From the IMG/VR virus record IMGVR_UViG_3300028048_001320: a stretch of DNA of 64,000 bases; one strand, given 5' to 3'. Made by a program: the position numbers and the translations under genes. Positions within the stretch are counted from its first letter, which is position 1, and each line of letters begins with the position of its first letter. Below the pieces are notes generated by a model, which had not been told where the DNA came from, did no database searches, and saw only the letters and a list, made by a program, of their open reading frames with translations. This stretch comes from an uncultured virus (IMG/VR IMGVR_UViG_3300028048_001320). Lineage: Duplodnaviria > Heunggongvirae > Uroviricota > Caudoviricetes. Of this stretch, positions 5,144 to 42,244 are shown in pieces.

Positions 5144-5701
5144 TTAGAATTTAAATTCATGACGCTCTTCTTCGCGCTTCTTAAATGCTTCTATAATTTC
5201 TTCTATTGATACTGGATAATTTTCATGCGCTTCTGGTGCTACATTATAACCGCCTGCCTCATCCCAAATTTTAGAAAGATGAGTATGTCCGCTAATTGAA
5301 AGCATACGTCTTTCTAATGGTTTATTATAATCATTATTACTTGTCATAGTTGGATAATGACATAAATAAAAACTGTATCCTTTGTATTTGAGTATATGCG
5401 CATGACCAAGCGAAATAAAATTAATACCCGCGTTCATAAGTAACTTCTTACGAGCATCTGTATCATGATTTCCCCAAATAATATATTTAGTACCAGGCAG
5501 CTGTTTCATAAGTCTCATACCTTCTTCGTTATCATTAAGAAAACAATCGCCTAATATATAAAGTTCATCATTCCAAGATACTTTCTCTTTTATATTACTC
5601 AAAAGAGTTTCATTCATCTCTTGTACTGAACTAAAACCACGAGGTTTATATATAAATGACCTATCATGGCAAAAATGTAAATCTGATATAAACCACTTCA
5701 T
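5144..5701 (-). CDS. Calcineurin-like metallophosphoesterase
   Basis: SDLHF, LGD, GNHD, CHYP, GHTH motifs. Confidence 0.9.
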   Translation of the reverse strand: MKWFISDLHFCHDRSFIYKPRGFSSVQEMNETLLSNIKEKVSWNDELYILGDCFLNDNEEGMRLMKQLPGTKYIIWGNHDTDARKKLLMNAGINFISLGHAHILKYKGYSFYLCHYPTMTSNNDYNKPLERRMLSISGHTHLSKIWDEAGGYNVAPEAHENYPVSIEEIIEAFKKREEERHEFKF

Positions 5702-7193: not shown

Positions 7194-7655
7194 TTATATA
7201 TAAACTATTCTATTAATATAAGTTTCAACTACAGGATTCGGCGCTCTATAGTTATTTTTCATATTATACATTGTTTTATCAGGCACTCTAACTATTCCTT
7301 CTCTTGCAGCATTTCTTTTAAAACATACTTCAAAAGGAGTTCTCATTATAACTACACATATCTCATCAGGTACGACTGCAAGGTTATCCAGCAGCTTTCG
7401 TCTACTTCCAACGGTTAAATGTGTAGCGTCCGCAATTACAGTTTTTTCATCTAACAAGTGTTTATCTATTCTATTGCAAAACTCTTTATACACTTCAAAT
7501 TCATGGTCAAAATAATGTTTCTGGTCAGTTACATATTCATATCTTACTTCATCTCTTGAAACATATTCCCAATTAGGATTTAGTTCAAGAAGTTTTTTCG
7601 CATATGTACTTTTACCTGAACCGGGCAATCCAACCATTATTACTAATCTATTCAT
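7194..7655 (-). CDS. Polynucleotide kinase-like P-loop kinase (AAA_33)
   Basis: MVGLPGSGKST, SRDEVR, ADATH, RNAARE. Confidence 0.85.
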   Translation of the reverse strand: MNRLVIMVGLPGSGKSTYAKKLLELNPNWEYVSRDEVRYEYVTDQKHYFDHEFEVYKEFCNRIDKHLLDEKTVIADATHLTVGSRRKLLDNLAVVPDEICVVIMRTPFEVCFKRNAAREGIVRVPDKTMYNMKNNYRAPNPVVETYINRIVYI

Positions 7656-7947
7656 TAACATCACCTTTCTTTTCTAAATTATTCATTTTAATTTTAAAAT
7701 CACTAAAACTTAATATTCTCATTCCTTTTTTATTAAAATTACCATTTTCATATTCCCAATAGAAATCTTCTCTTGTATAACTTGAACCAAAACCTTTAAC
7801 TTCTACCATGTTTACTTTTCTTTTACAATAGATACAATACATACGTTTCAAATGACCTGGCTCGCGCTCGCGCCCTGACTTTCGCGGAACTGGGATATTT
7901 TTTCTACCACATTGAGTACAATACATATCACTATAAGTCATATTCAT
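7648..7947 (-). CDS. Zn-ribbon protein
   Basis: CTQC ... CIYC. Confidence 0.6.
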   Translation of the reverse strand: MNMTYSDMYCTQCGRKNIPVPRKSGREREPGHLKRMYCIYCKRKVNMVEVKGFGSSYTREDFYWEYENGNFNKKGMRILSFSDFKIKMNNLEKKGDVNE

Positions 7948-7949
7948 AT

Positions 7950-8237: not shown

Positions 8238-9488
8238 TTATCCATGATATTTTGCTAAAAATTCATTTGATACTGCTTTGAATGAACGCTCGCCGCGTCT
8301 ATCTCTAAAGACAATTCCCTCTCTCATTTCATGGTCGAGTGCAGACTCTCCAGTTGCCTGAAGAAGTAAAGTATCGCAATCCATTGGTAGTTTATAAAGT
8401 TCACTGATGATTGGAACACAGGGTACTCCATAAGGAGTAAGAGTATCAGTCATTTCACGAGGATTTAAACGTACAGAGCGCCCATTCTTATATCCATAAA
8501 TAAGATTGAAAGCCATAAAGTCATGGTATCCACTTGGAACAGAGTAAGTTCTTTTCTGTATACCATCGCCATAAGTCTCACCCTGAATAGTAACGAAATC
8601 AAGGTTAGGATTCTTCTTTAAAAGCATTTCTAACACATTCTGTATATTATACTTAACAGCCATCTCAATATATACATTAGACTCATAAAAACACTTATTT
8701 ATTCTTTCAGGTGTATCAAAGCATACATTTCTTGAACAAACATAAAACTCTGGCTTATGAAAAAGTTTACCACGACGTACAGTAAATGTAGTGCTGGTTC
8801 CATCTATTTTTTCTGTAGCAAACCATTCTGTATCATGCCAGTCTTTATCTGTAAATAACCAAGGCATGTTCTGACATCTCTCTTCATCAGTTTTCTTAAC
8901 CCATGAAGGCCATCCGCCATTTTTATCCTTCTTCTTTCCAAAAAAGAAGAACATTATCTCCTTACCCCATTTACGATTCATCATCCATCTTGCCCATTTC
9001 TTTTTAAATATATTTGGATGACGCTGTGCCATTTTCTTATATTTATCTACAGATGGTGCTTTACGCTTATTATCTTCAGCAACCGCATAAATTATACCAA
9101 GTTGTTTTGTAAGAAAACGAGATTCTTCATCTACTCTATGAAATGTTCCTTTATCATCTTTTAAAACATTATTATGCTGTCCTTCAACTACTTCCCATCC
9201 AAAATCAGATGGATGCATAAGAAGTCCCTGTGAATAAAAAGTCTTAAATTTCTGAGTTTTAATCTTAAAATGATATTTTGCAAGAAAATCGAAAGGTGAA
9301 GTCTCTGGTGTCTGTGAATCAATTTCGATATAGATACCTATATCACCAGGTTTAAATTGTCCTTTCTTTACCATTGTGCGCCAGCCGCCTATAACAGCCG
9401 CCTCAACCCTATCTTTACCTTCTATTGGCTCTATTGCATCAACTGTCACAAGATAAGCTAATTCTCTTTCATTATCTTTATTTAACAT
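8238..9488 (-). CDS. RNA ligase, Rnl2/DRB0094 family, with N-terminal OB-like domain
   Basis: Motifs I TEKIDGTS, III QGETYG, IIIa AFNL, IV EGIVF, V FKAVS; N-terminus LAYLVTVDAIEPIEGKDRVE. Confidence 0.9.
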   Translation of the reverse strand: MLNKDNERELAYLVTVDAIEPIEGKDRVEAAVIGGWRTMVKKGQFKPGDIGIYIEIDSQTPETSPFDFLAKYHFKIKTQKFKTFYSQGLLMHPSDFGWEVVEGQHNNVLKDDKGTFHRVDEESRFLTKQLGIIYAVAEDNKRKAPSVDKYKKMAQRHPNIFKKKWARWMMNRKWGKEIMFFFFGKKKDKNGGWPSWVKKTDEERCQNMPWLFTDKDWHDTEWFATEKIDGTSTTFTVRRGKLFHKPEFYVCSRNVCFDTPERINKCFYESNVYIEMAVKYNIQNVLEMLLKKNPNLDFVTIQGETYGDGIQKRTYSVPSGYHDFMAFNLIYGYKNGRSVRLNPREMTDTLTPYGVPCVPIISELYKLPMDCDTLLLQATGESALDHEMREGIVFRDRRGERSFKAVSNEFLAKYHG

Positions 9489-11687: not shown

Positions 11688-11699
11688 TCCTTTTACCTC

Positions 11700-13163: not shown

Positions 13164-13182
13164 AATTTAATCTCCTTCAATT

Positions 13183-13560: not shown

Positions 13561-13580
13561 TTTTATCCTCCTTTTATCTC

Positions 13581-15320: not shown

Positions 15321-15447
15321 TGATAGAATCTCCTTTCTTTTTAATATATATTATATTATAAAAAATAATATACTTCATTAATTAATTATGTCCTTGAAAT
15401 AAAAAAATTGCGGAAGTTGCTAGAAAAATAGCAACTTCCGCCCTTTG

Positions 15448-15666: not shown

Positions 15667-15670
15667 TATT

Positions 15671-16225: not shown

Positions 16226-16442
16226 TTTCTAATTTCTCCAATCTTTGTAATATATTATCAAGTTTATTATCTTGATTACTTAAATGATTATGAATTTCTT
16301 CTAAAAGAACTTCAGCTCTTGTTGCAAAATCATGTTGTAAATCTTGCATATCACCTTGTGTTATGTTTTCATCTAAATTCATAAGACATATACAAAAGCT
16401 TGCTATGCTAAGTAAGTCTAAAAATTCTAATTGATTTTTCAT
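16215..16442 (-). CDS. Small coiled-coil protein of the conserved cassette
   Basis: FLDLLSIASF...NLDEN...HNHLSNQDNKLDNIL. Confidence 0.6.
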   Translation of the reverse strand: MKNQLEFLDLLSIASFCICLMNLDENITQGDMQDLQHDFATRAEVLLEEIHNHLSNQDNKLDNILQRLEKLENDT

Positions 16443-16443
16443 A

Positions 16444-16848
16444 TTAGCATAACTTTGTTATTACAATATTGGCAATTGGAAATTCACCAGCAGCACTATT
16501 GATTACTTGTATATTAGTAGGACTTGTACAACAGCTACAAGTATTATTCTCTTGAACTTGAACTAAAGTACAAAAACTCATATTAGTTGGAGTAGCTGCA
16601 GTACCTTGTTCTATAGCAATAGCTTCAGGTTGTAATATACCATTTTTACTTAATTGAATTGATACTTCGCCTGCGGCGGTCGGTGCTAAACTGACATCAC
16701 ATGATACCATGTAAATACCGGCTTTGTTAAGTTGAAAAGTTGCGGGTCCAGCTTGTACAGCACTACATCCTTTCTTTAAAACTATATTATTAAAAGGTAT
16801 AGCTGTATCAGCTTCCACAGTAATATTTGTACTATAAGCTTGAATCAT
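16444..16848 (-). CDS. BclA C-terminal/C1q-like beta protein
   Basis: AIPFNN...FQLNKAGIYMV...ANIVITKL. Confidence 0.55.
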   Translation of the reverse strand: MIQAYSTNITVEADTAIPFNNIVLKKGCSAVQAGPATFQLNKAGIYMVSCDVSLAPTAAGEVSIQLSKNGILQPEAIAIEQGTAATPTNMSFCTLVQVQENNTCSCCTSPTNIQVINSAAGEFPIANIVITKLC

Positions 16849-16934
16849 CGTTCTTTTCCTCCATATATAAAAAAATCGGGTGTACTTAAAAATAAGTACA
16901 CCCGTGTTGTTTTAGGCGTACTAAATACGCTCGA

Positions 16935-17588
16935 TTACATCATTCCACAATTGCATCCACAGAAAGGACTAATGCCAGCATTATATGTCCAAGCATTAGG
17001 ATATCTTACAACTCCAGCCATAGCATTTTGGAGTTGAAGTTCATTAATCTGATTCTGCATATCTGCTATTCTATTTCCAGAAATCATATCTTTAACGCTC
17101 TGAATTTGTGCTGTAAAATTAGCATTTGTTGCAGCATCGCGCATAGCTCCATCATAATTAGATTGCATAATCATCTGTTTTGTTTCGCAGCAGCATTCAT
17201 TAGCTTTTGCAAGCTGATTAGCTTGACCTACCGCTAATCCAGCAATATCTCTTTCTATTTCATTATAGAGATTCTGATTAGCCATTAAACTATCATGGAA
17301 TGTTTGATTTGTAGCAGCTACTGACTGAGCTGTTCCTGCATTAACTGCTGCAAGAATATCTCTAGTTTGTGCTTGAAGATTTTGATTGTCAAATCCTCTC
17401 TGTACTTCATTTGAAGTTGCAAGGTTTTCATAACCTATAGCATTAGCAAAGTTATTATTACCCCAGCCGCCAAATCCTCCGCCCATAAGCGCAAGAATTG
17501 CAAAAAGCCAGATAAAGGAATTATTTCCAAGTCCTCCATCATTAAGTAAAGCAACATCAGAAGCTGATAATCCTGTTCCTTCTCCCAT
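16935..17588 (-). CDS. Gly-rich membrane/coiled-coil protein (spore-coat-like phage family)
   Basis: IWLFAILALMGGGFGGWG, VQRGFDNQ, ECCCETK, C-terminal CGCNCG. Confidence 0.65.
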   Translation of the reverse strand: MGEGTGLSASDVALLNDGGLGNNSFIWLFAILALMGGGFGGWGNNNFANAIGYENLATSNEVQRGFDNQNLQAQTRDILAAVNAGTAQSVAATNQTFHDSLMANQNLYNEIERDIAGLAVGQANQLAKANECCCETKQMIMQSNYDGAMRDAATNANFTAQIQSVKDMISGNRIADMQNQINELQLQNAMAGVVRYPNAWTYNAGISPFCGCNCGMM

Positions 17589-17634
17589 CGTTTTTTCCTT
17601 CTAAAAAATATATTTATATTATAGAGCGCGCACT

Positions 17635-17901
17635 CTATTTAAACATATTTAAAACTGAGTCTGGGTCGACTCCTTTTTCTTCAGCTAATTTATAAAAGAT
17701 ATTTTTCATATCTCCTCCGTTCTGCTGAACCATATTAAAGACCTCTTTTATTTTTGGGTCTGATTGTATCATATTTTGAATATAAGCTGTAGGATTTATA
17801 GCCATTTTACATTCTTGAAATTTTCTTTGTAAGAAATTCATTTTTGGCTTAGTTTGCTGTCCTTTTGATAATTGGTTTAATTGTTGAAATAGTTGATTCA
17901 T
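17635..17901 (-). CDS. Small Q/M/N-rich protein of the cassette
   Basis: NPTAYIQNM...FYKLAEEKGVDP. Confidence 0.6.
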   Translation of the reverse strand: MNQLFQQLNQLSKGQQTKPKMNFLQRKFQECKMAINPTAYIQNMIQSDPKIKEVFNMVQQNGGDMKNIFYKLAEEKGVDPDSVLNMFK

Positions 17902-18307
17902 CTTGTATTACCTCGCTTTCTTGAATATTTGATTGAGGTAAAATAGACATAATTAAACTCTGTAATTCATCTTTACGAACATAATCTGATAATTTTGCGG
18001 GCTGCTCATCTTCTTGAATTTCTGTTAATTCAAATTTTCTTAATTTTGTTGCACCTAATTCATCTGCAATTTTAATATATGCACGATTTTCAATTTCACT
18101 ATCAAGCATAATTACTTTTGCATTAGGTTGTAACATAAATGCTTTAGCGCCTTCAATGCCTTGCACCCATATTAGGTTATTTCCCGTTCCTTGAACTGGC
18201 GTCGTGTTGTAATTACCCGCCATCCCGCGAGAGCCAAAAAAATTGGAATAATCTTGTTGTCCGTAAGGAGACATAAGACTATTCCCATATTGTTGAGTTA
18301 TATTCAT
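17849..18307 (-). CDS. Conserved cassette protein
   Basis: LIWVQGIEGAKAF...LDSE...YIKIADELG...YVRKDEL; start moved to MNITQQ behind AGGAGG. Confidence 0.65.
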   Translation of the reverse strand: MNITQQYGNSLMSPYGQQDYSNFFGSRGMAGNYNTTPVQGTGNNLIWVQGIEGAKAFMLQPNAKVIMLDSEIENRAYIKIADELGATKLRKFELTEIQEDEQPAKLSDYVRKDELQSLIMSILPQSNIQESEVIQDESTISTIKPIIKRTAN

Positions 18308-18508
18308 GTCGTTCTTCCTCCTTAAACTCCATATGGAGCATATAAACGGAAGCAATAGAATATATTGTTTTCCGTTCATATACTCTATGCCATAATCTAA
18401 TAGATGAGGCAGATTAAATTATTCTCTACCCCATCTATTATAATTAAAATTTTTGTGCTATAATTTTATATAAAATGTCCTTATTGGTAAAAAAATTTTT
18501 TATTTATT

Positions 18509-19723
18509 TTATGTTGTTTTGGTATACCGTATGGTTGTTCTTAAGGTTACTTGTCCAGAAGAACCAAGGTCTCTAAAATAATGACGAGTATATCCAGAAG
18601 TATGATTGTATGAAACAGTTATATACGGAGCTACAAATGAAACAGTTCCACTACTTAAATATCCACTACATACTATATCAACTATATCCTTTATTCCAGT
18701 TATTTGAATATCATTTACCCAATCCGATGGATTTGGAGCTAAGTTGTCAATTATATAACTCTTTTCATACAGCGTTTCGCCGAACCATGTGCCAATCACT
18801 TTTTCATCACCATTATAAGTAACCATCGGCACACCTAATGTTCCATAACTGCCAGAACCCGGAGTGTCACTATTTTTAGTATACTGAATTGTAACACGAT
18901 TGATAGTAACTGATGTGCCACCATTGATGTTTGGTCGAATATTTATATCGTCATTATCAACAGCTATCATAGCTGTGAAAAATTCGCCACTGTTTCTATA
19001 ATATGAAAAATCACTAAATTCATAATTAGCAGAACCAAGACCAAATATTCCTTCATAGTGTGTTATATTAATTCCAGTACCAGTAGTGTTTAATAGATTA
19101 TTAGTCCATGTATTATCTGGGACAGTCATGTTATTTAAATCATATGTCTTTTGATATAGCGGTTTATCATCAATCCATACACCTATTTCTTTTTCTTCGG
19201 TACTGAATATTTGTGGTGCGAGAGTACCGCAAAATTTAATACCTTGTATCTTATGATATATTGCAGGTGTTGCTGATGCGGTTGACTTGACGGTTATACT
19301 TGTATCACTTGTGTAATTTATAAATGCAATTAAAGCAACTGAATTAGCATAAAAATATCCAGTTAACATATAATCTTGTCCAATTACCATAGAATCTGTT
19401 TGGAAAGTTGCGATTTCTTTATATGTTGCATTTGTAGCTGTAAGCGTAATTACAATAACATCATAATCTGAAACTTTATGATTTAAAGCAACCTCTGTTC
19501 CTGCTGTTGGTGGAGTAATTGTACCCTCCCATAAGGTATCAACTATCTTGACACTTCTACCATCGCCACCACTACCACTACCAGCTATGTCATATATTGT
19601 ACTGTCTATTTCAATTGTATTTAAAGTATCCGTAGGTATACCTTGCGGATTTGGAATTACCGATGAACCACCACCCCCGCCTCCACCAGAATAACTTATA
19701 TCATTTAACATTAGTTTTCCCAT
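18509..19723 (-). CDS. Tail fibre/receptor-binding protein
   Basis: Gly linker, PNPQG-PTDTLNTIEID module, two EKxIGxW...LYQKT domains. Confidence 0.7.
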   Translation of the reverse strand: MGKLMLNDISYSGGGGGGGSSVIPNPQGIPTDTLNTIEIDSTIYDIAGSGSGGDGRSVKIVDTLWEGTITPPTAGTEVALNHKVSDYDVIVITLTATNATYKEIATFQTDSMVIGQDYMLTGYFYANSVALIAFINYTSDTSITVKSTASATPAIYHKIQGIKFCGTLAPQIFSTEEKEIGVWIDDKPLYQKTYDLNNMTVPDNTWTNNLLNTTGTGINITHYEGIFGLGSANYEFSDFSYYRNSGEFFTAMIAVDNDDINIRPNINGGTSVTINRVTIQYTKNSDTPGSGSYGTLGVPMVTYNGDEKVIGTWFGETLYEKSYIIDNLAPNPSDWVNDIQITGIKDIVDIVCSGYLSSGTVSFVAPYITVSYNHTSGYTRHYFRDLGSSGQVTLRTTIRYTKTT

Positions 19724-19735
19724 TTTTCATTCTCC

Positions 19736-21262
19736 TTATGTTGATGATTTGGTGTATTTGATGGTTATATCCACCGTGCTACCATTAAACCAGCTTGAGC
19801 ATATAACTCTAATGTCGTTATTAATTCCTTCAACGTCAAGCCTGTCTCCTCCATCGTTATATGACTCTTTAAATCTTATTATATTGCCGCCTCCATCTAT
19901 CTTGTATCCCGTTGCTTCTACAGCAACAAGTGAACCGATATTCTCTCCTGTTTGTATTGTAGTAGTTGTTCCTGTAATGGAGATATTTGGAATTGTCTTT
20001 TGATACAACGTCTCTCCAAAGTAAGTGCCGACAACTCGCTCTGTATCGTCGTAATGAACCATTGGTACACCTAAAGAATCATAATTTCCACTTCCTGCCG
20101 TATCGGATATTTTTGTATATTGTACGGTCAATACAAATGTTCCGCCAGAAAAGTAATTTGATGTAATCACTCTAACACCGTTGCTGTCAAAGCCCACGGA
20201 TGCATAGTCACTGAAGTCTCTGTAAGGTATATTGTATTTATACGAACCATCGCTTACATAGCCGCTAATAGCTGCCACTTCTTCCATGTCGGTTGTATTT
20301 GGTATATAAAAACTTGTGGAACTTATTGTCCCCGTGAATGTCTTTTGATACAGTGGCTTATCGTTCTTCCACGCTCCAATTTCACGTTCTTCTAATGAAT
20401 AGATTTGCGGTGTAAAATAATTTCCACTAACCTTAATACCAACTACTTTCCAAGCTACCATAGGATTAACAGATGCATATCCAACTAATGTTAAATGGGT
20501 TTCATCAACTACAGCGTAACTTGGACAGTTGTTAACATTACTTCCAATATTAACAACACCATTAAATTTACCATCTCTATATAAACTTTTTACTGATACG
20601 ATATTTGTATTGTGATAATTAGTATCACCATTAATTGTCGTATCAAGATATAACAAATCAAACTTATCTATACTTTCTGAAAGAGTAATGGTTTGCGGCG
20701 ATTGTGGATAAAATGTGAGACCATTAGGGTCTTCCCATAAAACAGTTTCGGTATAAACTCCGCCCGATGTGCCACCACCACTTCCGGCTATATCATATAT
20801 AACATCATCAATCTCAATAGTGTTAAGAGTATCGGTTGGCGTACCTTGTGGGTTCGGCACAACAGATGAACTTCCACCACCTCCGCCTCCACCATCAGTA
20901 ATGAAATACATTTTACCATTCATTTTTTCAGCTGGCGTTAAAAGGTCATATTCAGCCTGTGTCAATTCAACATAATCAGCATTTCCACCACCACCCTGTA
21001 ATTCATAAACAGTTCCATTAATTTCAACAGATGTTAATGTATCAGTAGGAGTATCTATTGGATTAGGGCTAACAGTATCTACTTCAACTCTTGCAACACT
21101 ATCCAATCCAATTACAGATTGATTATTAACTAATACATCAACAACTGGCGCTTGAGCTGATATACGATTATTAATTATTGTAATATTATCTCCAGGCGTT
21201 AATAAATCTTGTTTTGTATTTAAAAGCGATTTTTTCGCTAAATATTCTTTTTCATTTGGCAT
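19736..21262 (-). CDS. Tail fibre/receptor-binding protein, paralog of 18509-19723
   Basis: KQDLLTPGDNITI, ELTQAEYDLL...YFITD, same repeated modules. Confidence 0.7.
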   Translation of the reverse strand: MPNEKEYLAKKSLLNTKQDLLTPGDNITIINNRISAQAPVVDVLVNNQSVIGLDSVARVEVDTVSPNPIDTPTDTLTSVEINGTVYELQGGGGNADYVELTQAEYDLLTPAEKMNGKMYFITDGGGGGGGSSSVVPNPQGTPTDTLNTIEIDDVIYDIAGSGGGTSGGVYTETVLWEDPNGLTFYPQSPQTITLSESIDKFDLLYLDTTINGDTNYHNTNIVSVKSLYRDGKFNGVVNIGSNVNNCPSYAVVDETHLTLVGYASVNPMVAWKVVGIKVSGNYFTPQIYSLEEREIGAWKNDKPLYQKTFTGTISSTSFYIPNTTDMEEVAAISGYVSDGSYKYNIPYRDFSDYASVGFDSNGVRVITSNYFSGGTFVLTVQYTKISDTAGSGNYDSLGVPMVHYDDTERVVGTYFGETLYQKTIPNISITGTTTTIQTGENIGSLVAVEATGYKIDGGGNIIRFKESYNDGGDRLDVEGINNDIRVICSSWFNGSTVDITIKYTKSST

Positions 21263-26121: not shown

Positions 26122-26729
26122 TTGATAACTTAATTATAATAATATTATTTAGACTTTCGCCTTACTTACGATACCTTCTTCTTTATTAGACTAATGAAAC
26201 GATAAGGCTGAGCTAAGGTAGCTACTCCTTAACTTCTTACCGTGGATTAAATCCTTAAAATTCATAGTGGATTGTTTACCACTAACTTTCACGCGCCATT
26301 CAGCATATTTTTTAAAAACTGAGTATCCCAAACTCATTCATTAAAATTATATCTTTTAATTGTACCGTGGATTTGCGCTACTTGTACCTGACACCTTCTC
26401 ATTATAGATTATCACTAATCATCAACCACGTACCCTCTTGTTTGGTATTTCAAAGGTTTACCACAGTCACCAGCTAAAGCCTAACTTTGATTCTTCTCCA
26501 CAGGAGCGTCTATTACGAAAGCGAGAAGACCAGTGTCCTAAAAAGCGATATTTTCAGTACTTGCTACTCTTGACCAATCTTTTTATAGACGGGCATTATT
26601 TACATCACTGCAAATAATTTAAAACTTCAAAGTATCCTTATCAGTTTTATTTATCATTTAGTAGCAATCTCAGCAGCATGGTATTGCTTCTTCACTGAGT
26701 TAAAAATATTATTATAATTAAGTTATCAA
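26122..26729 (-). ncRNA. ROOL-like large structured RNA
   Basis: About 600 nt without a long ORF, closed by a perfect 25-bp inverted repeat (26122-26146/26705-26729). Own TTGACA/TATAAT promoter (about 26748-26776). 3' half reads CAAGTAGCGCAAAT, GTGAAAGTTAGTGGTAAACAATCCAC, GGAGTAGCTACCTTAGCTCAG, GGCGAAAGTCT, which I recall from ROOL; adjacent to tRNAs. Confidence 0.75.
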
Positions 26730-26780
26730 TGTTCATTTTCTATAAATATTATATCAAAAAATTTTTAATTTGTCAAATTA

Positions 26781-26896
26781 TTCTCTAAGTGGAGATTTGC
26801 ACTCCACATAACACATTGGTTTCACCCAACACGGTTTATGACAACCGTTCGTCTATTGATGCACCAAATAGCGTCTACCTATTCCGCCACTAGAGA
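26781..26896 (-). ncRNA. tRNA-like RNA with enlarged anticodon region
   Basis: Acceptor TCTCTAG/TTAGAGA, D-arm GCGGAATAGGTAGACGC, T-arm GTGGAG-TGCAAAT-CTCCAC; about 60 nt between D and T arms. Confidence 0.7.
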
Positions 26897-26927
26897 AACT
26901 AACCTTTTTGTTTTTGAAAGAAGATCG

Positions 26928-26998
26928 CTGGGGGCGAGGGTTACGCTCCCCCACCTCATGAGTCAAAGTCATGCGCGCTGCTACTACGCTAGCCCCCA
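26928..26998 (-). tRNA. tRNA-Gln(TTG)
   Basis: Cloverleaf; CATGA-CTTTGAC-TCATG. Confidence 0.88.
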
Positions 26999-27008
26999 TT
27001 ATATTAAT

Positions 27009-27767
27009 CTAAATATTCTCCCATTCTATATCAGAATATTTAGTAATATCAACTTTTTTACTAGGAAGATTATATTTTTTACACCATTTACGAATAGCAT
27101 TATCGCTTACACCATAATCTTTACCTATTTGAGTAAAAGGCATAGTTCTAATTTTCATCTTTAATTCATCTCTTGTTAAGGGTAAGATATTTTGCTGTGC
27201 TTTATATTTATTAGCACAATCTCTACATCTTATAGCTTGAATAGAAATTTCTTTCCCACAATCAATACATTTATGTTGAGTAAAACCTTTCTTTTTAGAA
27301 AAATCTCTATTTACTCTCATCTTTTTATATCCTGTTGTTTCTAATTGTTGATTACAATTAGGGCAAACCCATCTTAAATTTTCTAGTCTATTATCTTTAT
27401 TATGTCCATTAATATGGTCAAGTATTAAAGTTAATTCTTTATTTTGCCATATTGGTAACTGCCCACAAATACTACAAACATAAGGAGTATAGTTACCTCT
27501 TATATACCACTTTCTTAAAGTTGCTTGTGATGCAGTTGAGTTTTCCATAAAAACATTTTCTTCTGTTCTTACAACTTTTTTATTTTGTAACGATGTAAAG
27601 TGAGAATAATCAATATTATATAATTCTAATCTTTTTTTAACTGTTTGATGATTATTACCGCTATGTGTTGTATATCCAATAGCTTGAATAACTTCTTTCA
27701 TATTATGAGATTTATTTACAATTTCTTGTAGTTCTTCTTTTGAATATTGGTCTATAATTGATGACAT
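27009..27767 (-). CDS. Free-standing HNH homing endonuclease
   Basis: CSICG...LDHINGHNKDNRLENLRWVCPNCN; C-terminal Zn finger and HTH. Confidence 0.9.
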   Translation of the reverse strand: MSSIIDQYSKEELQEIVNKSHNMKEVIQAIGYTTHSGNNHQTVKKRLELYNIDYSHFTSLQNKKVVRTEENVFMENSTASQATLRKWYIRGNYTPYVCSICGQLPIWQNKELTLILDHINGHNKDNRLENLRWVCPNCNQQLETTGYKKMRVNRDFSKKKGFTQHKCIDCGKEISIQAIRCRDCANKYKAQQNILPLTRDELKMKIRTMPFTQIGKDYGVSDNAIRKWCKKYNLPSKKVDITKYSDIEWENI

Positions 27768-27961
27768 TATTTTTCTCCTTTCTTTTTCATATTATATATA
27801 AAAAAGATTGAAGTTCAATTTTTGAAATTCGACCAAAAAATTTTTTACTATTTGCCTTTACAGACGCATCTGTGTTTGCTGACTACCAATAGTTTGGCGG
27901 AAGTAGTTTTCATCCTTCGATATGTCCTAAAACATAACCCGCTATTTAATTTAATTTTATA

Positions 27962-28075
27962 AATAGTTAAGGTTCAGGCGTCAAGGATAACATGTTCCTT
28001 CCGTCGCTTTCACCAGCATAGCTGTTTCCATCTTTTAATACTTAACGGACTAAAACGATAAGTACCTTAACTATT
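27962..28075 (-). ncRNA. Unassigned small structured RNA
   Basis: 12-bp closing stem AATAGTTAAGGT/ACCTTAACTATT with internal hairpins, directly 3' of tRNA-Leu. Confidence 0.45.
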
Positions 28076-28077
28076 AG

Positions 28078-28161
28078 TGCGACTGATGGGATTCGAACCC
28101 ATAATGTCTCTTCGTGACGGATTTTAAGTCCGTTGTGTCTCGCCTATTGCACCACAGTCGC
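28078..28161 (-). tRNA. tRNA-Leu(TAA)
   Basis: ACGGA-CTTAAAA-TCCGT, long variable arm, GGTTCGAATCC. Confidence 0.92.
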
Positions 28162-28356
28162 ATATTGCGGGGAGCACGTTCAAGGAGTCCTTGAACGCCA
28201 GCCCGCGCTCCTTTTATCTCTTTCTATTGTGAAACCTCTGTGCTAATATGCTTACACCACTTGACCTGAGGAAGAAAGAAAATGTACAGCTAATATAGGA
28301 AAGAGGAAGTTCCACTGTACATTTGTAAAAAGCATATAAGTATAAATACTTATTCT

Positions 28357-28716
28357 AGGACATATGCTAAATCCTGTGTAGTTTAGTAAGTCTACCAACT
28401 TTTTGCCAGTCTTAGCCTGCCGAGAACGGACAGCGATTCCTTTATCTCCAGAGTCTATTGTCTGGCGAGTTTTCGTAGTTCCCTAGTCCACCGTATGACC
28501 GTGAGTCTCCACTTGATTTTACTCTACTCGGTTATCTAATCCCTACTGGCTTAATTAAAAATTAAGATATTTTCAATGCGCATTTACTCATATAGCTTCT
28601 CTCGCAGCCACCCGCCATGTCTCTTCCATATGGTACGTCATCTGAATTAACCCTCCATCAGCATAGGATACCTTCCAACGTCATTTTACATAGGCAAGAC
28701 TAGTCGGTATATTCCT
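28357..28716 (-). ncRNA. Unassigned large (about 360 nt) multi-stem RNA
   Basis: No ORF; nested long-range helices AGGAATAT/ATATGTCCT, TACCGACT/AGTTGGTA, CTAGTCTTGCCT/AGGCTAAGACTGG. Confidence 0.6.
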
Positions 28717-28728
28717 GAGAGCCTTGAG

Positions 28729-28800
28729 TTGCAGAGACGGGACTTGAACCCGTAACACGTGAGCATGAATCACGCAAGTTTCCAATTACTCCACTCTGCG
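28729..28800 (-). tRNA. tRNA-Met(CAT), initiator-like C1xA72
   Basis: CGCAGAG/CTCTGCA acceptor; CGTGA-TTCATGC-TCACG. Confidence 0.85.
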
Positions 28801-28949
28801 ATATATAACTCCGAATTATTTATCCTCCCTCGGAGCAACAGGACTTAACTCACTTCTTCTCGGAGCTATAGAGCAGTCGGTTCTATGTCAAGGCTCGCAG
28901 TAAAAACTGGATTTAGACGGAAACCGATAAGCCACTTAATATCCTTTTT

Positions 28950-29021
28950 TACCCCATACAGGAGTCGAACCCGTATCTTGCGGTTCGTAGCCGCTTGCTT
29001 TCTCCATTAAGCTAATGGGAT
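28950..29021 (-). tRNA. tRNA-Arg(ACG)
   Basis: GCGG-CTACGAA-CCGC; GGTTCGACTCC. Confidence 0.9.
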
Positions 29022-29023
29022 AC

Positions 29024-29148
29024 ATTTGAACAGTATTATGACACTCTATTTGTCTGCAATACACACAGTTGTAGAAGTTTTATAAAAGTTATTATTCACA
29101 GGTATGGGCGGGGCGTGCTTAATAACAATTATTTTTATTTGTTCAAAT
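29024..29148 (-). ncRNA. Small RNA with C-rich loop
   Basis: ATTTGAACA/TGTTCAAAT closing stem; GTTATTA..CAC-GCCCCGCCCATACCT-GTG..TAATAAC; promoter at about 29190-29226. Confidence 0.5.
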
Positions 29149-29229
29149 TATATATAAAAGCTAAAGCTTTTATTACTTTTTTCATCTTACATATATATTA
29201 TATCAAAAATTTTTATAAAATGCAAATTA

Positions 29230-29451
29230 TTACCAAGTAACATCAATATAAACTTTTTCACCTGGCTGACATCCATGTTCAAGAAGATAATCATTAAGTA
29301 GTTTAAGCGAAGGCTCTGCTTCTTCTGAAGATTCTACCCAAAAACCAGTAGCAACATCATTACTACCTTCATAACCTATATAATCAAGCAAATCATCAAT
29401 ACCAATAGCATCTTCAAGTTTTTGTCTGTCAAACATTTTTACTAATTTCAT
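29230..29451 (-). CDS. Hypothetical protein
   Basis: GAGGTG RBS and promoter. Confidence 0.6.
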   Translation of the reverse strand: MKLVKMFDRQKLEDAIGIDDLLDYIGYEGSNDVATGFWVESSEEAEPSLKLLNDYLLEHGCQPGEKVYIDVTW

Positions 29452-29515
29452 ATAATTATCACCTCATTTATTTTTTCTATAATAATTATAACAAAAATTT
29501 AATAAAAATACAAAT

Positions 29516-29588
29516 GGTGACTAATGGGACTTGCACCCATATCTTTCAGAATCACAATCTGAAGCATTGCTAATTATGCTATAGTCAC
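29516..29588 (-). tRNA. tRNA-His(GTG)
   Basis: TCAGA-TTGTGAT-TCTGA; C73. Confidence 0.88.
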
Positions 29589-29590
29589 AG

Positions 29591-29662
29591 TCACTCCTAT
29601 GGTAGTCGAAACCATGTCTACGGGATGAAAACCCGTTGTTCTTACCGCTAAACTAAGGAGCG
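29591..29662 (-). tRNA. tRNA-Glu(TTC)
   Basis: ACGGG-TTTTCAT-CCCGT. Confidence 0.88.
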
Positions 29663-29797
29663 TTATAAGCAACTTTCTTTCGCTTTTAAAGCTAAGATGG
29701 TTTATGGTAAGTTGCCACCTTTATAATTCTCCACGTTCACTGATACCATCCCAGATTCCGTTTCATAGATTCTACACTTAGGCGGTGAGCACCATAA

Positions 29798-29869
29798 CGA
29801 CTCTACAGAGAATTGAACTCTGACCTACGGAGCGACAGTCCGTCATTCTAACCATTAAACCACAGAGCC
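29798..29869 (-). tRNA. tRNA-Asp(GTC)
   Basis: ACGGA-CTGTCGC-TCCGT. Confidence 0.92.
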
Positions 29870-29902
29870 ATATTCGGACTTTTGTTTCATCAACAAAAGT
29901 CC

Positions 29903-30320
29903 ATTTCTACTCTCATACGTTATGCAACTCTTTACTTTACGAAGCAGTTGCCGCACCGTGTACTACATTGGTACAACTATCACTGGGTGAACCGTAAGCT
30001 TGACCTGTCCCAGCTTGTTGATTGGGTCTCTCAGTCATCAACTTGTTGATGCTGTCACTCGTAGCCGCTTACTCAGTTATATCTCAACTTCACACCTCGT
30101 TCTACGACTCCCCTATCTATAGTCGGAATTCCGTTAACAATGGGTACTGTTGTATCGCCCGCCTATCTTGGGTGACCTGGGGTCTTCAGGTGGATGTTCT
30201 CTAAAGCATTACGCGTAGCTTTAGTTTTTGTTGTTGATTTGTTGTTTTCGCCGTATACCTTACCATTCCTTTTAGAGGCTCTTCCTCATTACCGACGCAA
30301 ATGTTTTTAATGTAAGGTTT
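29903..30320 (-). ncRNA. Unassigned large (about 420 nt) structured RNA
   Basis: GC-richer non-coding interval between tRNA-Pro and tRNA-Asp with about 10 hairpins and an A/C-rich linker. Confidence 0.55.
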
Positions 30321-30322
30321 AT

Positions 30323-30391
30323 TGGAAATGTAGGACTCGAACCTCTCAACAACATCCCAAATGTCGTATGCTACCATTACATCACATTCCC
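30323..30391 (-). tRNA. tRNA-Pro(TGG)
   Basis: CGACA-TTTGGGA-TGTTG; AGGTTCGAGTCCT. Confidence 0.8.
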
Positions 30392-30430
30392 ATCATGCAA
30401 TTTACCCATGCACCAAATTGCGAAATGTAC

Positions 30431-30603
30431 ATGAGAAGCGAGTTTCCAGGGAACCCTTTCTCTTCCTAAACCTGCATTGGCGTGACATCTTTTTCTCATT
30501 TACGTTGATATGGTGAGGAACGCCTAATGCTAAGGCAATCTCCATGTACGCTTATTAGCCGAGTTAATAAGACCGAGTTTTTATAGTGAGTTTGCTTTCT
30601 CAT
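30431..30603 (-). ncRNA. About 173-nt structured RNA starting just after a promoter
   Basis: ATGAGAAAGC/GCTTCTCAT closing stem; GCATTAGGCGT/ACGCCAATGC inner stem; promoter at about 30615-30647. Confidence 0.5.
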
Positions 30604-30726
30604 TTATTTTCTATATATATTATAGCAAAAATTTTTTATTTTTGCAAATTTTTTATCAAGGTAGAGAGAGCGTTTCCTCATTTAATCCTGACTAACTGCT
30701 CGTAAAATCCAGTCCCCTTGATAGAG

Positions 30727-31279
30727 TAGACCGTACAGGATGTGCGCCTGTGACCTCGTGTTTGATTCAACAATGTTACTTATTAATTATTTTATTCACC
30801 ACCTTTTCTAATTCATATTCTTCTGCAAAAGTAATCCCTTTTGTCTGACCATTTTTTGGTGCAGTAAATCTAAGTCTTTTTCGAGTTGAACATTCCTCAA
30901 CAGGAATTAGATAAGCTTTTTCATTATAAAATGTCATAAAATAATCAATTTGTTCTTTATTATATGTATGTCTAACAAATTTACCATTATGAGTTGTTTT
31001 ATTAGCACATTGAAATTCAATATACCCTTCATTAATATGAGTATTTGAAGAGGTTTTAACTTGAATTTTTAATAGTCTACCTTGAATATCAACTACAAAA
31101 TCATATCGTTCACAATCTCCATAAGGAGTTAAAACATTGTAACCAAGTTTCAAAAATGCTAACATACATTCTATTTCTGTTATATTGCCTTTTTGTTTAC
31201 TATTTAACATTATATTAAATAATATAATAAGTAATTTGCTAAATCAGACACGCGCTCTGACTGACTGAGCTAACGGTCT
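30727..31279 (-). tRNA. tRNA-Ile(GAT) interrupted in the anticodon loop by a 479-nt insert (exons 31279-31243 and 30763-30727)
   Basis: AGACCGT-TA-GCTC..GAGC-G-CGTGT-CTGAT | insert | AA-ACACG-AGGTC-ACAGG-CGCACAT-CCTGT-ACGGTCT-A; joined exons give a 74-nt cloverleaf. Confidence 0.8.
30776..31210 (-). CDS. PD-(D/E)XK homing-type endonuclease (I-Ssp6803I/PDDEXK_5-like) inside the tRNA insert
   Basis: KGNITE...PYGDCERYDFVVD...KIQVKT...IDYF...YLIPV. Confidence 0.88.
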   Translation of the reverse strand: MLNSKQKGNITEIECMLAFLKLGYNVLTPYGDCERYDFVVDIQGRLLKIQVKTSSNTHINEGYIEFQCANKTTHNGKFVRHTYNKEQIDYFMTFYNEKAYLIPVEECSTRKRLRFTAPKNGQTKGITFAEEYELEKVVNKIINK

Positions 31280-31285
31280 ATAAAG

Positions 31286-31368
31286 CGTAGAGTGAGGGAC
31301 TCGAACCCCCAACGCCTTTCAGCGCGACTGTTTTCAGGACAGTATCTTCATCCAGCCAGATACTCTAC
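31286..31368 (-). tRNA. tRNA-Ser(TGA)
   Basis: ACTGT-CCTGAAA-ACAGT (unusual C33), long variable arm. Confidence 0.85.
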
Positions 31369-31372
31369 AAAT

Positions 31373-31448
31373 ATGATATTACGAACCCATTCCGGTATGG
31401 ACCTTCCCCATACCACACATTATACGATGCGCGGCTCTATAATATCAT
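31373..31448 (-). ncRNA. Small three-way-junction RNA between the tRNA-Ser genes
   Basis: ATGATATTA/TAATATCAT, GCGCAT/ATGTGT, GGTATGG/CCATACC. Confidence 0.5.
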
Positions 31449-31453
31449 CATGA

Positions 31454-31539
31454 CGCGAAGAGGAAGATTCGAACTTCCGAAACAAAATTCGTTTAACAGA
31501 TTAGCAATCTGCCGCTTTCAGCCACTCAGCCATCTCCGC
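31454..31539 (-). tRNA. tRNA-Ser(GCT)
   Basis: GCAGA-TTGCTAA-TCTGT, long variable arm. Confidence 0.92.
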
Positions 31540-31542
31540 AAA

Positions 31543-31613
31543 AGCTCCCGCACGGACTCGGACCGTGATTGAGTGATTACAAATCACCTCGCCTACCATT
31601 AGCGGACAAGAGC
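31543..31613 (-). tRNA. tRNA-Thr(TGT)
   Basis: GTGA-TTTGTAA-TCAC; GCTCTTG/CGGGAGC. Confidence 0.85.
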
Positions 31614-31809
31614 ATTTTCAAGAGCCTAATGCCATATCTACATATAACACTAAACCCTTGTTATTATATATTAAATTTTTTTAAAATCAAGTTAATTGAA
31701 TATGTCCAAAAATTTACTTTTGTCATACTGGTAACAAAAGTATTTTTATTTCTTTTTTTATCTTACATATATATTATATCAAAATTTTTTCAAAAAATCA
31801 AACAAAAAA

Positions 31810-32589
31810 TTAATTAACAATATATATATTCGCACCTTGTCTACCGAATTGAATACAAGTATCAACATCGCCCATATATATATCAACGACTCCGCCGCCC
31901 ATTCCTCCGGTATCTTCTACAACATAAGTTCCATAACCCTCAATGTAAATTGTAGTTCCAAGAGGTAAACTGTTACATGCTACGGTATAACCAGTAGTTG
32001 GATAGTTCCCGTTAGCACAGGTATTTCCTGTCCACTCGTAGGCTGTGAGTTCATAATAACCAACATATGTCATGCCATTTTCATCGGTTACTGGTGCGGG
32101 ATCCGAGGCCTGTGATTCATCAACCCAAGTTGAATATGATTCTTCAGGTTGGGTTGCGATGTATTGAGGCTCGGGCGCCGCAATTTCATAAGTTAAATAT
32201 TCATACCAAATAAAATATAAATTATCATTATACTCAATTAAATCCCACCCATTTGGAGATATGCCGACTCTTTTTACAGATGTGCCTGCCCCTAATAGAG
32301 GACCCGCCTTATCTTCCATATTAGGCTTATAACGAGCATATACAATAGTTGATGTGTACATATCTTCATCAACTTTTTCTGCATCCCAAATATTACGTTG
32401 TGTAAATGCATCTTTTACAAATATACTATTCTCTTGTGTCTCAATTTGATAAGATACCATTAAATTATAGTATCCAGTATAGTAATCTTCATTTACGTTT
32501 CTATCTTCTGCTGCGAACACGGTCAAATTACTACATAATAATAGACCAGCTATGATTAAGCTGGTCATTAATTTTATTATTCTTTTCAT
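31810..32589 (-). CDS. Secreted 3D-domain cell-wall protein with SH3-like domain
   Basis: Signal peptide; ELTAY...TVACNSLPLGT...VEDTGG...VDIYM (3D domain). Confidence 0.85.
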   Translation of the reverse strand: MKRIIKLMTSLIIAGLLLCSNLTVFAAEDRNVNEDYYTGYYNLMVSYQIETQENSIFVKDAFTQRNIWDAEKVDEDMYTSTIVYARYKPNMEDKAGPLLGAGTSVKRVGISPNGWDLIEYNDNLYFIWYEYLTYEIAAPEPQYIATQPEESYSTWVDESQASDPAPVTDENGMTYVGYYELTAYEWTGNTCANGNYPTTGYTVACNSLPLGTTIYIEGYGTYVVEDTGGMGGGVVDIYMGDVDTCIQFGRQGANIYIVN

Positions 32590-41495: not shown

Positions 41496-41726
41496 TTAAA
41501 AATCGCTTGCCCGCATATCTTCTTCTGTTTTTTCTTCATGAACATAACAATTTGTATCATCAACCCATTTAATGTCAATTCTACTAACTTCATCTTCACC
41601 ATACATCTTTATAAGATATTCCATAGCTTCTGCAAAAGTACAACCAAAGACATAACCTTCACTAATATTTTCTGTATTATTACTATCGCAATACCACATT
41701 ATTCGATACCAGTATTTATTAATCAT
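41496..41726 (-). CDS. Hypothetical protein
   Basis: Coupled to the HAD gene. Confidence 0.55.
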   Translation of the reverse strand: MINKYWYRIMWYCDSNNTENISEGYVFGCTFAEAMEYLIKMYGEDEVSRIDIKWVDDTNCYVHEEKTEEDMRASDF

Positions 41727-42244
41727 GTGTTATCACCTTTCCATTCATATTTATCATTATTTAATATTTCTATAGCTTCTTTAGTATCTTCATCGGTCAA
41801 TCCTGTTTTGCAATCAACCCAAATCCAGCGTTTCAAAATAGCATCTCCATATTTGTAAAAATCATCAAAATAATGGTCATCTAAAACTACCCAAGCAGTT
41901 ATATTTGTATGAGTGTTTAACCAATTCATAATACCTTCGCCGCGGTTATAGTTTCTATCTATTGTTTTATCATAGACTTTCAACCCTTGCTTGCGCAGTT
42001 TATTTGATAAATATTTAGCATCTTGATGAGTTTGTTTATATGCGCCAGGCATAAAATTCTCTTTCCATGTAGATGTTAATACTATTTCTGCATTTGTTTC
42101 TTGTATAATTTTTGCTAACTTCCGCACCAATACAGTATCTATTCCAACCCATCCATTACAATTAGATACAGAAGTAGCACAATTTAATACATTATCTATA
42201 TCCAAAAAAACAATTTTCAATAATTTCACCGCCTTTATAGCCAA
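41723..42244 (-). CDS. HAD-family phosphatase (Swiss Army Knife RNA-repair-like HAD)
   Basis: FLDIDNVLN, IVLTSTW, RGEGI, WVVLDD, GLT. Confidence 0.8.
   Translation of the reverse strand: MAIKAVKLLKIVFLDIDNVLNCATSVSNCNGWVGIDTVLVRKLAKIIQETNAEIVLTSTWKENFMPGAYKQTHQDAKYLSNKLRKQGLKVYDKTIDRNYNRGEGIMNWLNTHTNITAWVVLDDHYFDDFYKYGDAILKRWIWVDCKTGLTDEDTKEAIEILNNDKYEWKGDNT

Follow-up and report, generated by a model that had tools for sequence, protein, structure and literature searches.

An endonuclease-encoding insert without a detectable ribozyme core interrupts phage tRNA genes at the anticodon and pairs its ends with it

The stretch of DNA analysed here, 64,000 nucleotides (nt) long and referred to in full as the window, belongs to an uncultured virus of the Caudoviricetes (IMG/VR record IMGVR_UViG_3300028048_001320) and contains a tRNA-Ile gene that is split at its anticodon by an insert encoding a homing endonuclease. 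The phage carries 11 further tRNA genes together with lysis genes and tail-like genes, and the DNA and RNA runs that contain its sequence are bovine and sheep gut samples. The insert, which begins with UUAGC and ends with AAUC, has only 44 nt outside its open reading frame (ORF). The split gene is missed in place by ARAGORN, both with and without the intron option. When the exon coordinates are joined by script, the default threshold of ARAGORN suffices to call the product, a 75-nt tRNA-Ile(GAU) with stem pairs of 7/7, 4/4, 5/5 and 5/5 and with C4:G69 and A73 present. The two halves, their lengths and the intactness of the acceptor, D and T stems had been claimed in an earlier reading of the letters alone (hereafter the original prediction); the coordinates proved exact and all four stems perfect. 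The same prediction held that oddities of the D and T loops are shared with intact tRNAs of this phage. GG is missing from the D loop, and CGCACAT stands in the T loop in place of the canonical TTCRA. By alignment, at least one other tRNA of the window, tRNA-His, also has G55 and a D loop without GG, whereas none of the 16 other interrupted tRNA-Ile genes collected has these odd loops, all of them being canonical.

The product of the ORF matches the Pfam family PDDEXK_5 with an E-value of 4.5e-31 and 108 bits (cut-off 26), and the structure of I-Ssp6803I (PDB 2OST) with an E-value of 2.2e-12, which bears out the proposal that the insert holds an endonuclease of the I-Ssp6803I family. Among the residues invariant in 73 homologues of less than 90% nt identity are E12, D37, Q50-x-K52, Y83 and D89. 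By analogy, E12, D37, Q50 and K52 would be the catalytic residues, and the protein is under purifying selection. Bonocora and Shub reportedly found the first member of this family in 2001, in a group I intron of the cyanobacterial tRNA-fMet gene, and I-Ssp6803I is said by them to cut DNA with a 3-nt 3′ overhang flanking the anticodon. Two reviews describe this enzyme as a PD-(D/E)XK tetramer in which two subunits cut (PMC3943268, PMC3017599), and a 2026 study lists PDDEXK_5 genes of huge gut phages as stand-alone endonucleases (PMC12880540). In two contigs with diverged endonuclease ORFs (L010 and L029, position ~2082 in each), an in-frame TAG stands at the same codon, which is Thr28 in the window; the phages concerned may read TAG as a sense codon.

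The insert has many relatives in similar positions. A set of 130 loci was found by protein search, comprising 43 from IMG/VR, the best 80 of 134 from metagenomes, six contigs of metagenome-assembled genomes (Bacillota) and the window itself. ARAGORN with the intron option reports a tRNA spanning the homologous ORF at 114 of these loci, the window not among them. In a procedure of our own, candidate exon ends were joined with nt 36 as the last exon base and ARAGORN had to call the product at its default threshold; a tRNA was found around the ORF at 117 of the 130, and several of the remaining 13 loci lie where a contig ends. Once identical pairs of insert ends are merged, 94 distinct ones remain of the 117 loci, here counted as 94 inserts, with lengths of 433-848 nt (median 469.5) and ORFs that have diverged to 38% identity. 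The interrupted genes were assigned to tRNA-Asn(GUU) in 50 cases, Ile(GAU) in 17, Thr(UGU) in 6, Lys(UUU) in 4, Pro(UGG) and Gln(UUG) in 3 each and Val(UAC) in 2, and a few are uncertain. Six of the 94 measure 750-850 nt, and all four of these that were scanned with Pfam encode the PDDEXK_5 domain with a C-terminal extension. A complete 190-kb contig (L018/L045; 190353 bp, with terminal repeats) has the ORF four times within ~5 kb of a tRNA cluster, and ARAGORN places three of these copies inside tRNAs. The insert family is large, and its members occupy tRNA genes of phages from gut and rumen whose hosts are of the Firmicutes type.

The cloverleaf alone cannot fix the register of insertion, because sliding both junctions together keeps a 7-nt anticodon loop. 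Uninterrupted alleles show the junction and thereby place it at nt 36/37. The cultured Enterococcus phage EFP01 has a 463-nt insert, the ORF of which is 56% identical at the protein level to that of the window, and its sequence is identical to that of phage EFDG1 up to CTGTT and from AACCAG on, with the insert between. The uninterrupted tRNA-Asn gene of EFDG1 reads ...GGCTGTT/AACCAGTT..., the slash marking the EFP01 insert site, and the uninterrupted IMG/VR contig L133 reads ...GGCTGTT/AACCGCGG..., with contig L011 interrupted at the slash (both by base-by-base alignment). The insert is absent from EFDG1 and from other Schiekvirus records. A further 29 Enterococcus phage records match the EFP01 flanks at 90-99% identity, none covering 80% of the query; the 23 of them that were listed match it in two pieces that together make up 54% of its length, and most carry a tRNA-Asn annotation. 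Register 36 alone gives sensible anticodons in every group, other registers leading to stop-reading anticodons, to A34, or to Leu, Ser or Tyr anticodons on tRNAs without a long variable arm. Judged from these alignments, the element lies between nt 36 and 37 without target duplication, and its presence and absence among near-identical phages are as expected for homing. The mobility suggested by the original prediction is thus seen in relatives (EFP01 against EFDG1, L011 against L133), whereas the phage collection yielded no uninterrupted allele of the tRNA-Ile of the window: a distant blastn search there with 30400-31700 returned only the EFP01 ORF and an unrelated tRNA. The DNA runs X3 and X6 gave no usable uninterrupted allele of the window either, and one X6 contig skips 29514-31386 entirely. 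None of 50,697 phage records is a close relative of the window phage, and megablast with positions 1-20000 returned no relatives.

A self-splicing core was sought at several levels. No group I, group II or other ribozyme was matched by Rfam 15 in positions 26500-32000 of the window at E≤10 with permissive filters, and the inserts of 15 diverse related loci gave no match to ribozyme families at E≤1. The 3′ terminal G of group I introns occurs in only 4 of the 94 inserts, the last base being C in 70, A in 19 and U in 1; the window has C, and this base pairs and covaries with nt 34. These results agree with the original claim that a ribozyme core is lacking. The last exon base, nt 36, is U in 79 of the 94 inserts, as a group I P1 helix would have it, but fold and covariation pair the end of the 5′ exon with the 3′ end of the insert. 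For group II introns, there is no Rfam match to domain V, and the ends are UUAGC...AAUC rather than GUGYG...AY. Along the ORF, the ratio of observed to expected identity at synonymous codons stays at 0.81-1.20 in every reported 8-codon window (73 ORFs of less than 90% nt identity, windows stepped every 4 alignment columns). Synonymous-site constraint is thus not seen in the ORF, and a core hidden in it is unsupported, because such a core should suppress synonymous change.

Structure of another kind is predicted for the RNA. In an unconstrained minimum-energy fold, the 553-nt precursor of the window reaches a z-score of −6.2, and none of 100 shuffles folds as well. The fold preserves the arms of the cloverleaf and prolongs the anticodon stem by 11 base pairs (bp; helix 1), an internal loop of A versus CA and another 10 bp (helix 2), with the ORF looped out (Table 1). 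Helix 1 runs from U33:A37 to +7:−10, insert positions +1 to +7 pairing with −4 to −10. Of three duplexes drawn in the original prediction, the first two are present in the minimum-energy fold and covary in relatives, and the third, AUUAUUU/AAAUAAU, is replaced by a local hairpin around the start codon.

Relatives fall into two classes. Class B comprises 32 sequences, including the window, from Ile, Pro, Val and Thr tRNAs; five were added by eye and the register was imposed. Class A is mostly Asn and includes EFP01, and 51 of its 58 sequences, those with anchorable motifs, were analysed. In class B, 297 of 320 cells of helix 1 are paired, compared with a fraction of 0.62 ± 0.02 after partner shuffling, and 259 of 320 cells of helix 2, compared with 0.53; in class A, helix 2 has 404 of 459 cells paired, compared with 0.62. 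In each case none of 500 shuffles reaches the observed value, although related sequences can beat partner shuffles without any structure. All pairs have changed on both sides (10/10 and 10/10 in helices 1 and 2 of class B, 9/9 in helix 2 of class A), and in the class A contig L022 a UAA stop codon has become UGA, with an accompanying change in the partner it pairs with. The last three bases of the insert follow the anticodon: AUC stands with GAU in 16 of 17 inserts and AGC with GUU in 50 of 50, and AUC also closes L118, a class A insert that lies in a tRNA-Ile. Of the four inserts with UUU, three end in AAA, and both inserts with UAC end in GUA, but outside Asn and Ile the figures for helix 1 and for the anticodon are inflated because the junctions were chosen partly by helix 1 pairing. 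When whole precursors were folded, at least 8 of the 10 helix 1 pairs formed in 26 of 27 class B loci, and in the window too; in class A, where only 6 of the 10 pairs are Watson-Crick, 37 of 58 folds keep at least 6 and 16 keep none.

The loop between the two helices is conserved within each class. In class B, A+8 (31 of 32) lies opposite CA (24 of 32), beside a conserved CAA/UUG, and the imposed register places it 7 bp away from the 5′ junction and 10 bp away from the 3′ one. The class A loop has YUGAC on the 5′ strand in 48 of 51 sequences and CUGAUGU on the 3′ strand in 41 of 51. A kink-turn with tandem G.A and U.U pairs, as in box C/D RNA, was considered for the class A loop and rejected, the bulge being 2 nt versus 1 nt and not 3 versus 0. 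Helix 1 as an RNA copy of the whole DNA target was likewise rejected, only the left half and the anticodon triplet corresponding; by eye, insert positions +1 to +7 are unlike tRNA nt 37-43. Conservation of the duplex in homologues had been named beforehand as a test, and the duplex does covary across relatives. Overall, the comparative data indicate strong selection on the insert RNA for ends that zip onto the anticodon.

Table 1. Features of the split tRNA-Ile gene, its predicted RNA structure and candidate RNA-repair genes of the window
Feature	Position	Strand	Remarks
tRNA-Ile(GAU), 5′ half	31243..31279	-	Acceptor, D arm, 5′ strand of anticodon stem, nt 32-36; ends CGTGT-CTGAT; anticodon GAT at 31245-31243
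Insert between tRNA nt 36 and 37	30764..31242	-	479 nt = 32 nt + 435-nt ORF + 12 nt; last base C
tRNA-Ile, 3′ half	30727..30763	-	Starts AA-ACACG; A37, A38, 3′ strand of anticodon stem, variable loop, T arm, acceptor, A73
Homing-endonuclease ORF	30776..31210	-	435 nt including stop, 144 aa; PD-(D/E)XK family PDDEXK_5 (I-Ssp6803I type)
Predicted helix 1, 5′ strand	31236..31246	-	U33, anticodon G34-U36, insert +1 to +7; 5′ junction (31243/31242) inside
Predicted helix 1, 3′ strand	30763..30773	-	Insert −10 to −1 and A37; last three insert bases AUC pair with anticodon GAU
Predicted asymmetric internal loop	30774..30775	-	CA (C−12 A−11) opposite A+8 at 31235
Predicted helix 2, 5′ strand	31225..31234	-	Insert +9 to +18, part of ORF leader
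Predicted helix 2, 3′ strand	30776..30785	-	Insert −13 to −22; last ORF codons and TAA stop
Predicted hairpin with ORF start codon	31198..31224	-	Start codon 31210-31208; from the minimum-energy fold; no Shine-Dalgarno sequence upstream
Phage RNA ligase, candidate sealing enzyme	8238..9488	-	Pfam PF09414, E 1.7e-19, and PHA02142 OB domain; link to insert putative
Polynucleotide-kinase-like P-loop protein, candidate 5′ end healer	7194..7664	-	Pfam AAA_33, E 1.5e-20; tRNA_lig_kinase, E 4e-4; role putative
Calcineurin-like metallophosphoesterase, candidate 3′ end healer	5144..5701	-	Pfam Metallophos_2 and Metallophos; role putative
RNA-repair-type 'Swiss Army Knife' HAD protein	41723-42244	-	

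The window also encodes enzymes that could rejoin RNA ends. The ligase named in the original prediction is indeed an RNA ligase by its Pfam match, and it lies in an RNA-repair set (5144-9488) that also holds a pentapeptide/DUF5758 protein, with a PIN-PhoH fusion at 3302-4561. EFP01 encodes RtcB (E 9e-60), which is present in 1 of 10 insert-bearing records. PF09414-like matches occur in 8 of 10 insert-bearing phage records, of which only three exceed the cut-off, and a record that is 84% complete is without any; the weak matches may not be RNA ligases, because the model also matches the E. coli and B. subtilis control genomes. The PF09511 profile (T4 Rnl1) gave no match in the searched records and none in the control genomes either. 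As for the cutting enzyme, the splicing endonuclease family EndA (PF01974) was found in none of five complete insert-bearing phage records and in none of 62 ORFs of the window, and RNase III in none of the five. Since neither is encoded by the phages searched, and since the insert is essentially all that sets EFP01 apart from insert-free relatives at this locus, the nuclease would come from the host, from the general toolkit of the phage or from the insert itself.

We conclude that the insert is a mobile, ribozyme-free, endonuclease-carrying, intron-like element. For the fate of its RNA, our best guess, which we hold tentatively, is that proteins cut it out and that RNA-repair ligases of the phage rejoin the exons. 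The transcript would fold so that the insert ends zip onto the anticodon and the ORF is looped out. A protein endonuclease, either a host enzyme or the insert's own PD-(D/E)XK protein, would then cut both junctions and leave a 3-nt 3′ overhang, and the tRNA halves would be rejoined by phage RNA repair, through the kinase, the phosphoesterase and the PF09414 ligase in the window and through RtcB in EFP01. A rejoined, working tRNA would, in this proposal, make the insert nearly neutral to the phage. In the predicted structure, 3 bp separate the two junctions, which are on opposite strands; one falls within helix 1, and the other where this helix meets what is left of the anticodon loop. A cut at each would turn the anticodon into a 3-nt 3′ overhang, whereas RNase III would give a 6- or 8-nt loop. 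The 3-nt stagger that the original prediction called for to restore CUGAUAA is therefore geometrically right. It is conceivable, though we would not count on it, that these are the first mobile introns outside archaea and eukaryotes to be protein-spliced and ribozyme-free, the helix presenting both junctions to a nuclease and a phage RNA-repair ligase (RtcB, or kinase plus phosphoesterase plus Rnl) resealing the anticodon loop. In its boldest form, the proposal would make the insert's own PD-(D/E)XK protein the nuclease: the anticodon and the last three intron bases would rebuild the centre of its DNA target in RNA, and the RNA would be cut on either side of the anticodon to leave a 3-nt 3′ overhang, as I-Ssp6803I reportedly does with DNA.

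Several points weigh against splicing by proteins. No spliced RNA was seen: in RNA contigs of X2 and X5 (two runs of one sample), the exon-exon joint from 31243 to 30763 is absent among the joints listed, an absence that is uninformative on splicing because a 75-nt tRNA would hardly assemble. Two contigs from these libraries, which may also contain DNA, bridge the 3′ junction unspliced (X2 record 3, 29910-31269; X5 record 21, 30716-31203), the former extending only 27 letters past the 5′ junction, which is not enough to be taken as a bridge there. The D and T loops of the window's own tRNA are non-canonical. The candidate nucleases and ligases also fit each other poorly, because a PD-(D/E)XK enzyme or RNase III would not make 2′,3′-cyclic-phosphate and 5′-OH ends, and it is on such ends that RtcB and the kinase/phosphoesterase route act. 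A 3-nt stagger in the cutting of an RNA helix is not known from any enzyme of bacteria or phages, that of RNase III being 2 nt. RNA-repair genes are common in large tRNA-rich phages and so are not specific to the insert; presumably they are also present in the insert-free relatives of EFP01, and such ligases are an opportunity for splicing, not proof of it. Intact-looking exons can also arise from homing into fresh functional alleles. Finally, the junctions were chosen partly by maximal helix 1 pairing, with a bonus if the first three pairs formed; this bias spares helix 2, the changes on both sides of pairs, and the Asn and Ile junctions, which are backed by uninterrupted alleles.

A reading without any splicing fits nearly as well, and we regard it as possible if somewhat doubtful. 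The endonuclease gene would have broken a dispensable phage tRNA, and the tRNA would serve as a scaffold for the endonuclease mRNA, with the helices serving the selfish gene. RNase P and RNase Z would free a discrete, exonuclease-resistant RNA, and the helices would gate translation from the leader, which has no Shine-Dalgarno sequence, and hide the anticodon. Phage tRNAs are often individually dispensable. This reading is consistent with the lack of a ribozyme or a known splicing nuclease in the window, the 15 loci and the five complete phage records, with helices that enclose the ORF leader and stop while the start codon sits in a predicted hairpin, and with RNA-library contigs that keep the insert joined to the 3′ exon. 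It would also accommodate the aberrant loops of the window tRNA and the damaged D arm of one relative (L016), which has an 8-nt duplication. It accounts less readily for the pattern of conservation within helix 1, where the pairs on the junction side are the best kept (32/32, 30/32, 32/32 and 32/32, compared with 25-28/32 in mid-helix, the first three having been favoured by the junction choice), or for an insert end that re-adapts to each new anticodon. The joined exons are still called as a tRNA at 117 of the 130 loci despite the divergence of the ORFs, one complete phage tolerates four ORF copies in its tRNA cluster, and the perfect stems of the window tRNA are unlike free decay.

Splicing without a protein nuclease is the next reading to consider. 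A new small catalytic motif, formed by the internal loop and the two helices and perhaps by the tRNA body, might splice or cleave itself; if it only cleaved, RtcB or the kinase-plus-ligase route would seal the exons. In favour of such a motif are unpaired nucleotides that are conserved, flanked by covarying helices and constant in their distance from either junction, and the ligases present suit the 2′,3′-cyclic-phosphate and 5′-OH ends of self-cleaving RNAs. An element that invades naive genomes such as that of EFP01 would moreover gain from needing no outside factors. We nevertheless consider this unlikely. In-line attack would be poorly served by junctions placed within a regular helix or at its margin, and the two classes share the geometry with different loop sequences, whereas catalytic cores are normally conserved in sequence. 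The inserts of the 15 loci gave no Rfam ribozyme match, and only about 45 nt lie outside an ORF that shows no synonymous-site constraint.

A conventional group I (or group II) intron with its core hidden in the ORF has on its side the frequent U36 and the discovery of the endonuclease family in a group I intron, and is very improbable in view of the empty Rfam scans, the rarity of a terminal G at a position that covaries with nt 34, the unconstrained synonymous codons and a 5′ exon that pairs with the 3′ end of the insert rather than with a guide sequence near its 5′ end. Hardly any weight attaches to chance or to a decayed remnant devoid of present RNA-level function: ARAGORN misses the gene in place and its T loop is non-canonical, but the comparative data, with the same architecture and compensatory changes at 114-117 of 130 loci and with perfect stems in the window, already contradict it.

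Other features of the neighbourhood were recorded. Directly upstream of the split tRNA-Ile lies an unannotated type II tRNA-like gene (31286-31369, minus strand), which ARAGORN calls as tRNA-Ser(UGA) with C33 at a relaxed threshold only and which matches the Rfam tRNA-Sec model with 32.4 bits, below the cut-off. Within the tRNA cluster, an Rfam 'drum' RNA (29664-29771, minus strand; 44.1 bits, gathering score 43) stands between tRNA-Glu and tRNA-Asp, and an HNH_3 protein with zinc ribbons (27009-27767, minus strand), a second selfish-looking gene, stands between tRNA-Gln and tRNA-Leu. The contigs of relatives often end, join or restart at about 29472-29515, 30603-30652 and 31750-31802 of the window; these places look like repeated promoter-like modules acting as recombination sites among related phages, and a promoter-like sequence with a TATAAT box lies at 30608-30652. 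A tRNA-Val(GAC) with a 23-nt intron, reported by ARAGORN at 55265-55361 (minus strand), was considered as an ORF-less relative of the insert and dropped; with a weak D arm and a mismatched anticodon stem, it is probably not a real tRNA. In relatives, giant structured RNAs adjoin interrupted tRNAs at L004 3614-4238, L027 (EFP01) 2933-3519, L033 1443-1899 and L034 1123-1581, with ROOL matches of 341 and 265 bits and GOLLD-like matches of 101-106 bits (cut-off 150). In L042, a weak HDV-like ribozyme match (2806-2862; 31.3 bits, cut-off 44, E 0.065) lies directly 3′ of the 3′ exon of an interrupted tRNA-Pro.

To our knowledge, the tRNA introns of bacteria are self-splicing only. No description of ribozyme-less inserts or introns in phage tRNA genes was found in a full-text literature search. 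According to a 2014 review, all phage introns known by then lie in protein-coding genes, despite the many tRNA genes of phages (PMC3984707). More than 100 phage tRNA genes with an endonuclease gene at one exact position, no ribozyme, and helices that co-evolve with the anticodon represent a kind of mobile insert that recurs in such genes and has so far gone undescribed, and its RNA architecture is clearly under selection. If the insert is spliced, viruses of bacteria have a route of intron removal resembling archaeal and eukaryotic tRNA splicing, and the RNA-repair ligases of phages gain a housekeeping role beyond countering the anticodon nucleases of the host. If it is not, a selfish gene uses a natural tRNA scaffold for its own expression, which is also undescribed. 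Either answer is open to direct test, since EFP01, which has the insert, is in culture and EFDG1 is near-identical but without it.

Among known systems, the group I intron in tRNA-fMet of the cyanobacterium Synechocystis PCC 6803, which encodes I-Ssp6803I, has the same endonuclease family and the same kind of target, a tRNA anticodon loop. According to Bonocora and Shub in 2001, it is reportedly inserted directly after the anticodon. It resides in a bacterial chromosome, and its 5′ exon pairs with an internal guide sequence, whereas the insert described here is found in phages, has neither a ribozyme core nor a 3′ terminal G, has 44 nt outside the ORF, and pairs the 5′ exon with its own 3′ end.

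The protein-spliced introns of archaea and eukaryotes resemble the insert in other respects. Archaeal introns of the bulge-helix-bulge (BHB) type with homing endonucleases, such as those in rRNA with LAGLIDADG ORFs, are also ribozyme-free and consist of little beyond the ORF and a helix that joins the ends, and the introns of eukaryotic pre-tRNAs form a helix between anticodon and intron, as is predicted here. Both are removed by an endonuclease and a ligase such as RtcB, and the same would be needed for the phage insert. The BHB, with two 3-nt bulges and a 4-bp helix, is absent from the insert, the junctions of which lie 3 bp apart in or at a continuous helix. The usual position of tRNA introns in archaea and eukaryotes is 37/38, whereas that of the insert is 36/37, in phages of bacteria.

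The intervening sequences of 23S rRNA, excised by RNase III and left without re-ligation, are likewise inserts in a structural RNA with a long duplex between their ends. They differ in that a 7-nt anticodon loop calls for a 3-nt stagger and not for the 2 nt of RNase III, and a tRNA nicked in its anticodon loop would be non-functional unless re-ligated. In the laboratory 'tRNA scaffold', said to have been introduced by Ponchon and Dardel in 2007, a foreign RNA placed in the anticodon arm on an extended stem yields stable, correctly processed RNA. This scaffold is man-made, and we know of no natural mRNA that uses one.

Other selfish nucleases also target the tRNA regions of phages, among them SegB of T4 and T6 and the PDDEXK_5 genes of Pectobacterium phage My1 and Vibrio phage phi-pp2, which belong to the same protein family as the ORF of the insert. 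In My1 (L002, 1501-1968) and phi-pp2 (L003, 1504-1988), the free-standing ORFs overlap the 5′ ends of an intact tRNA-Ile and an intact tRNA-Met, respectively, by a few bases. The genes of SegB, My1 and phi-pp2 stand between tRNA genes or abut on them and leave the tRNAs whole, whereas the insert described here lies inside the anticodon loop, with RNA ends that have co-evolved with the anticodon.

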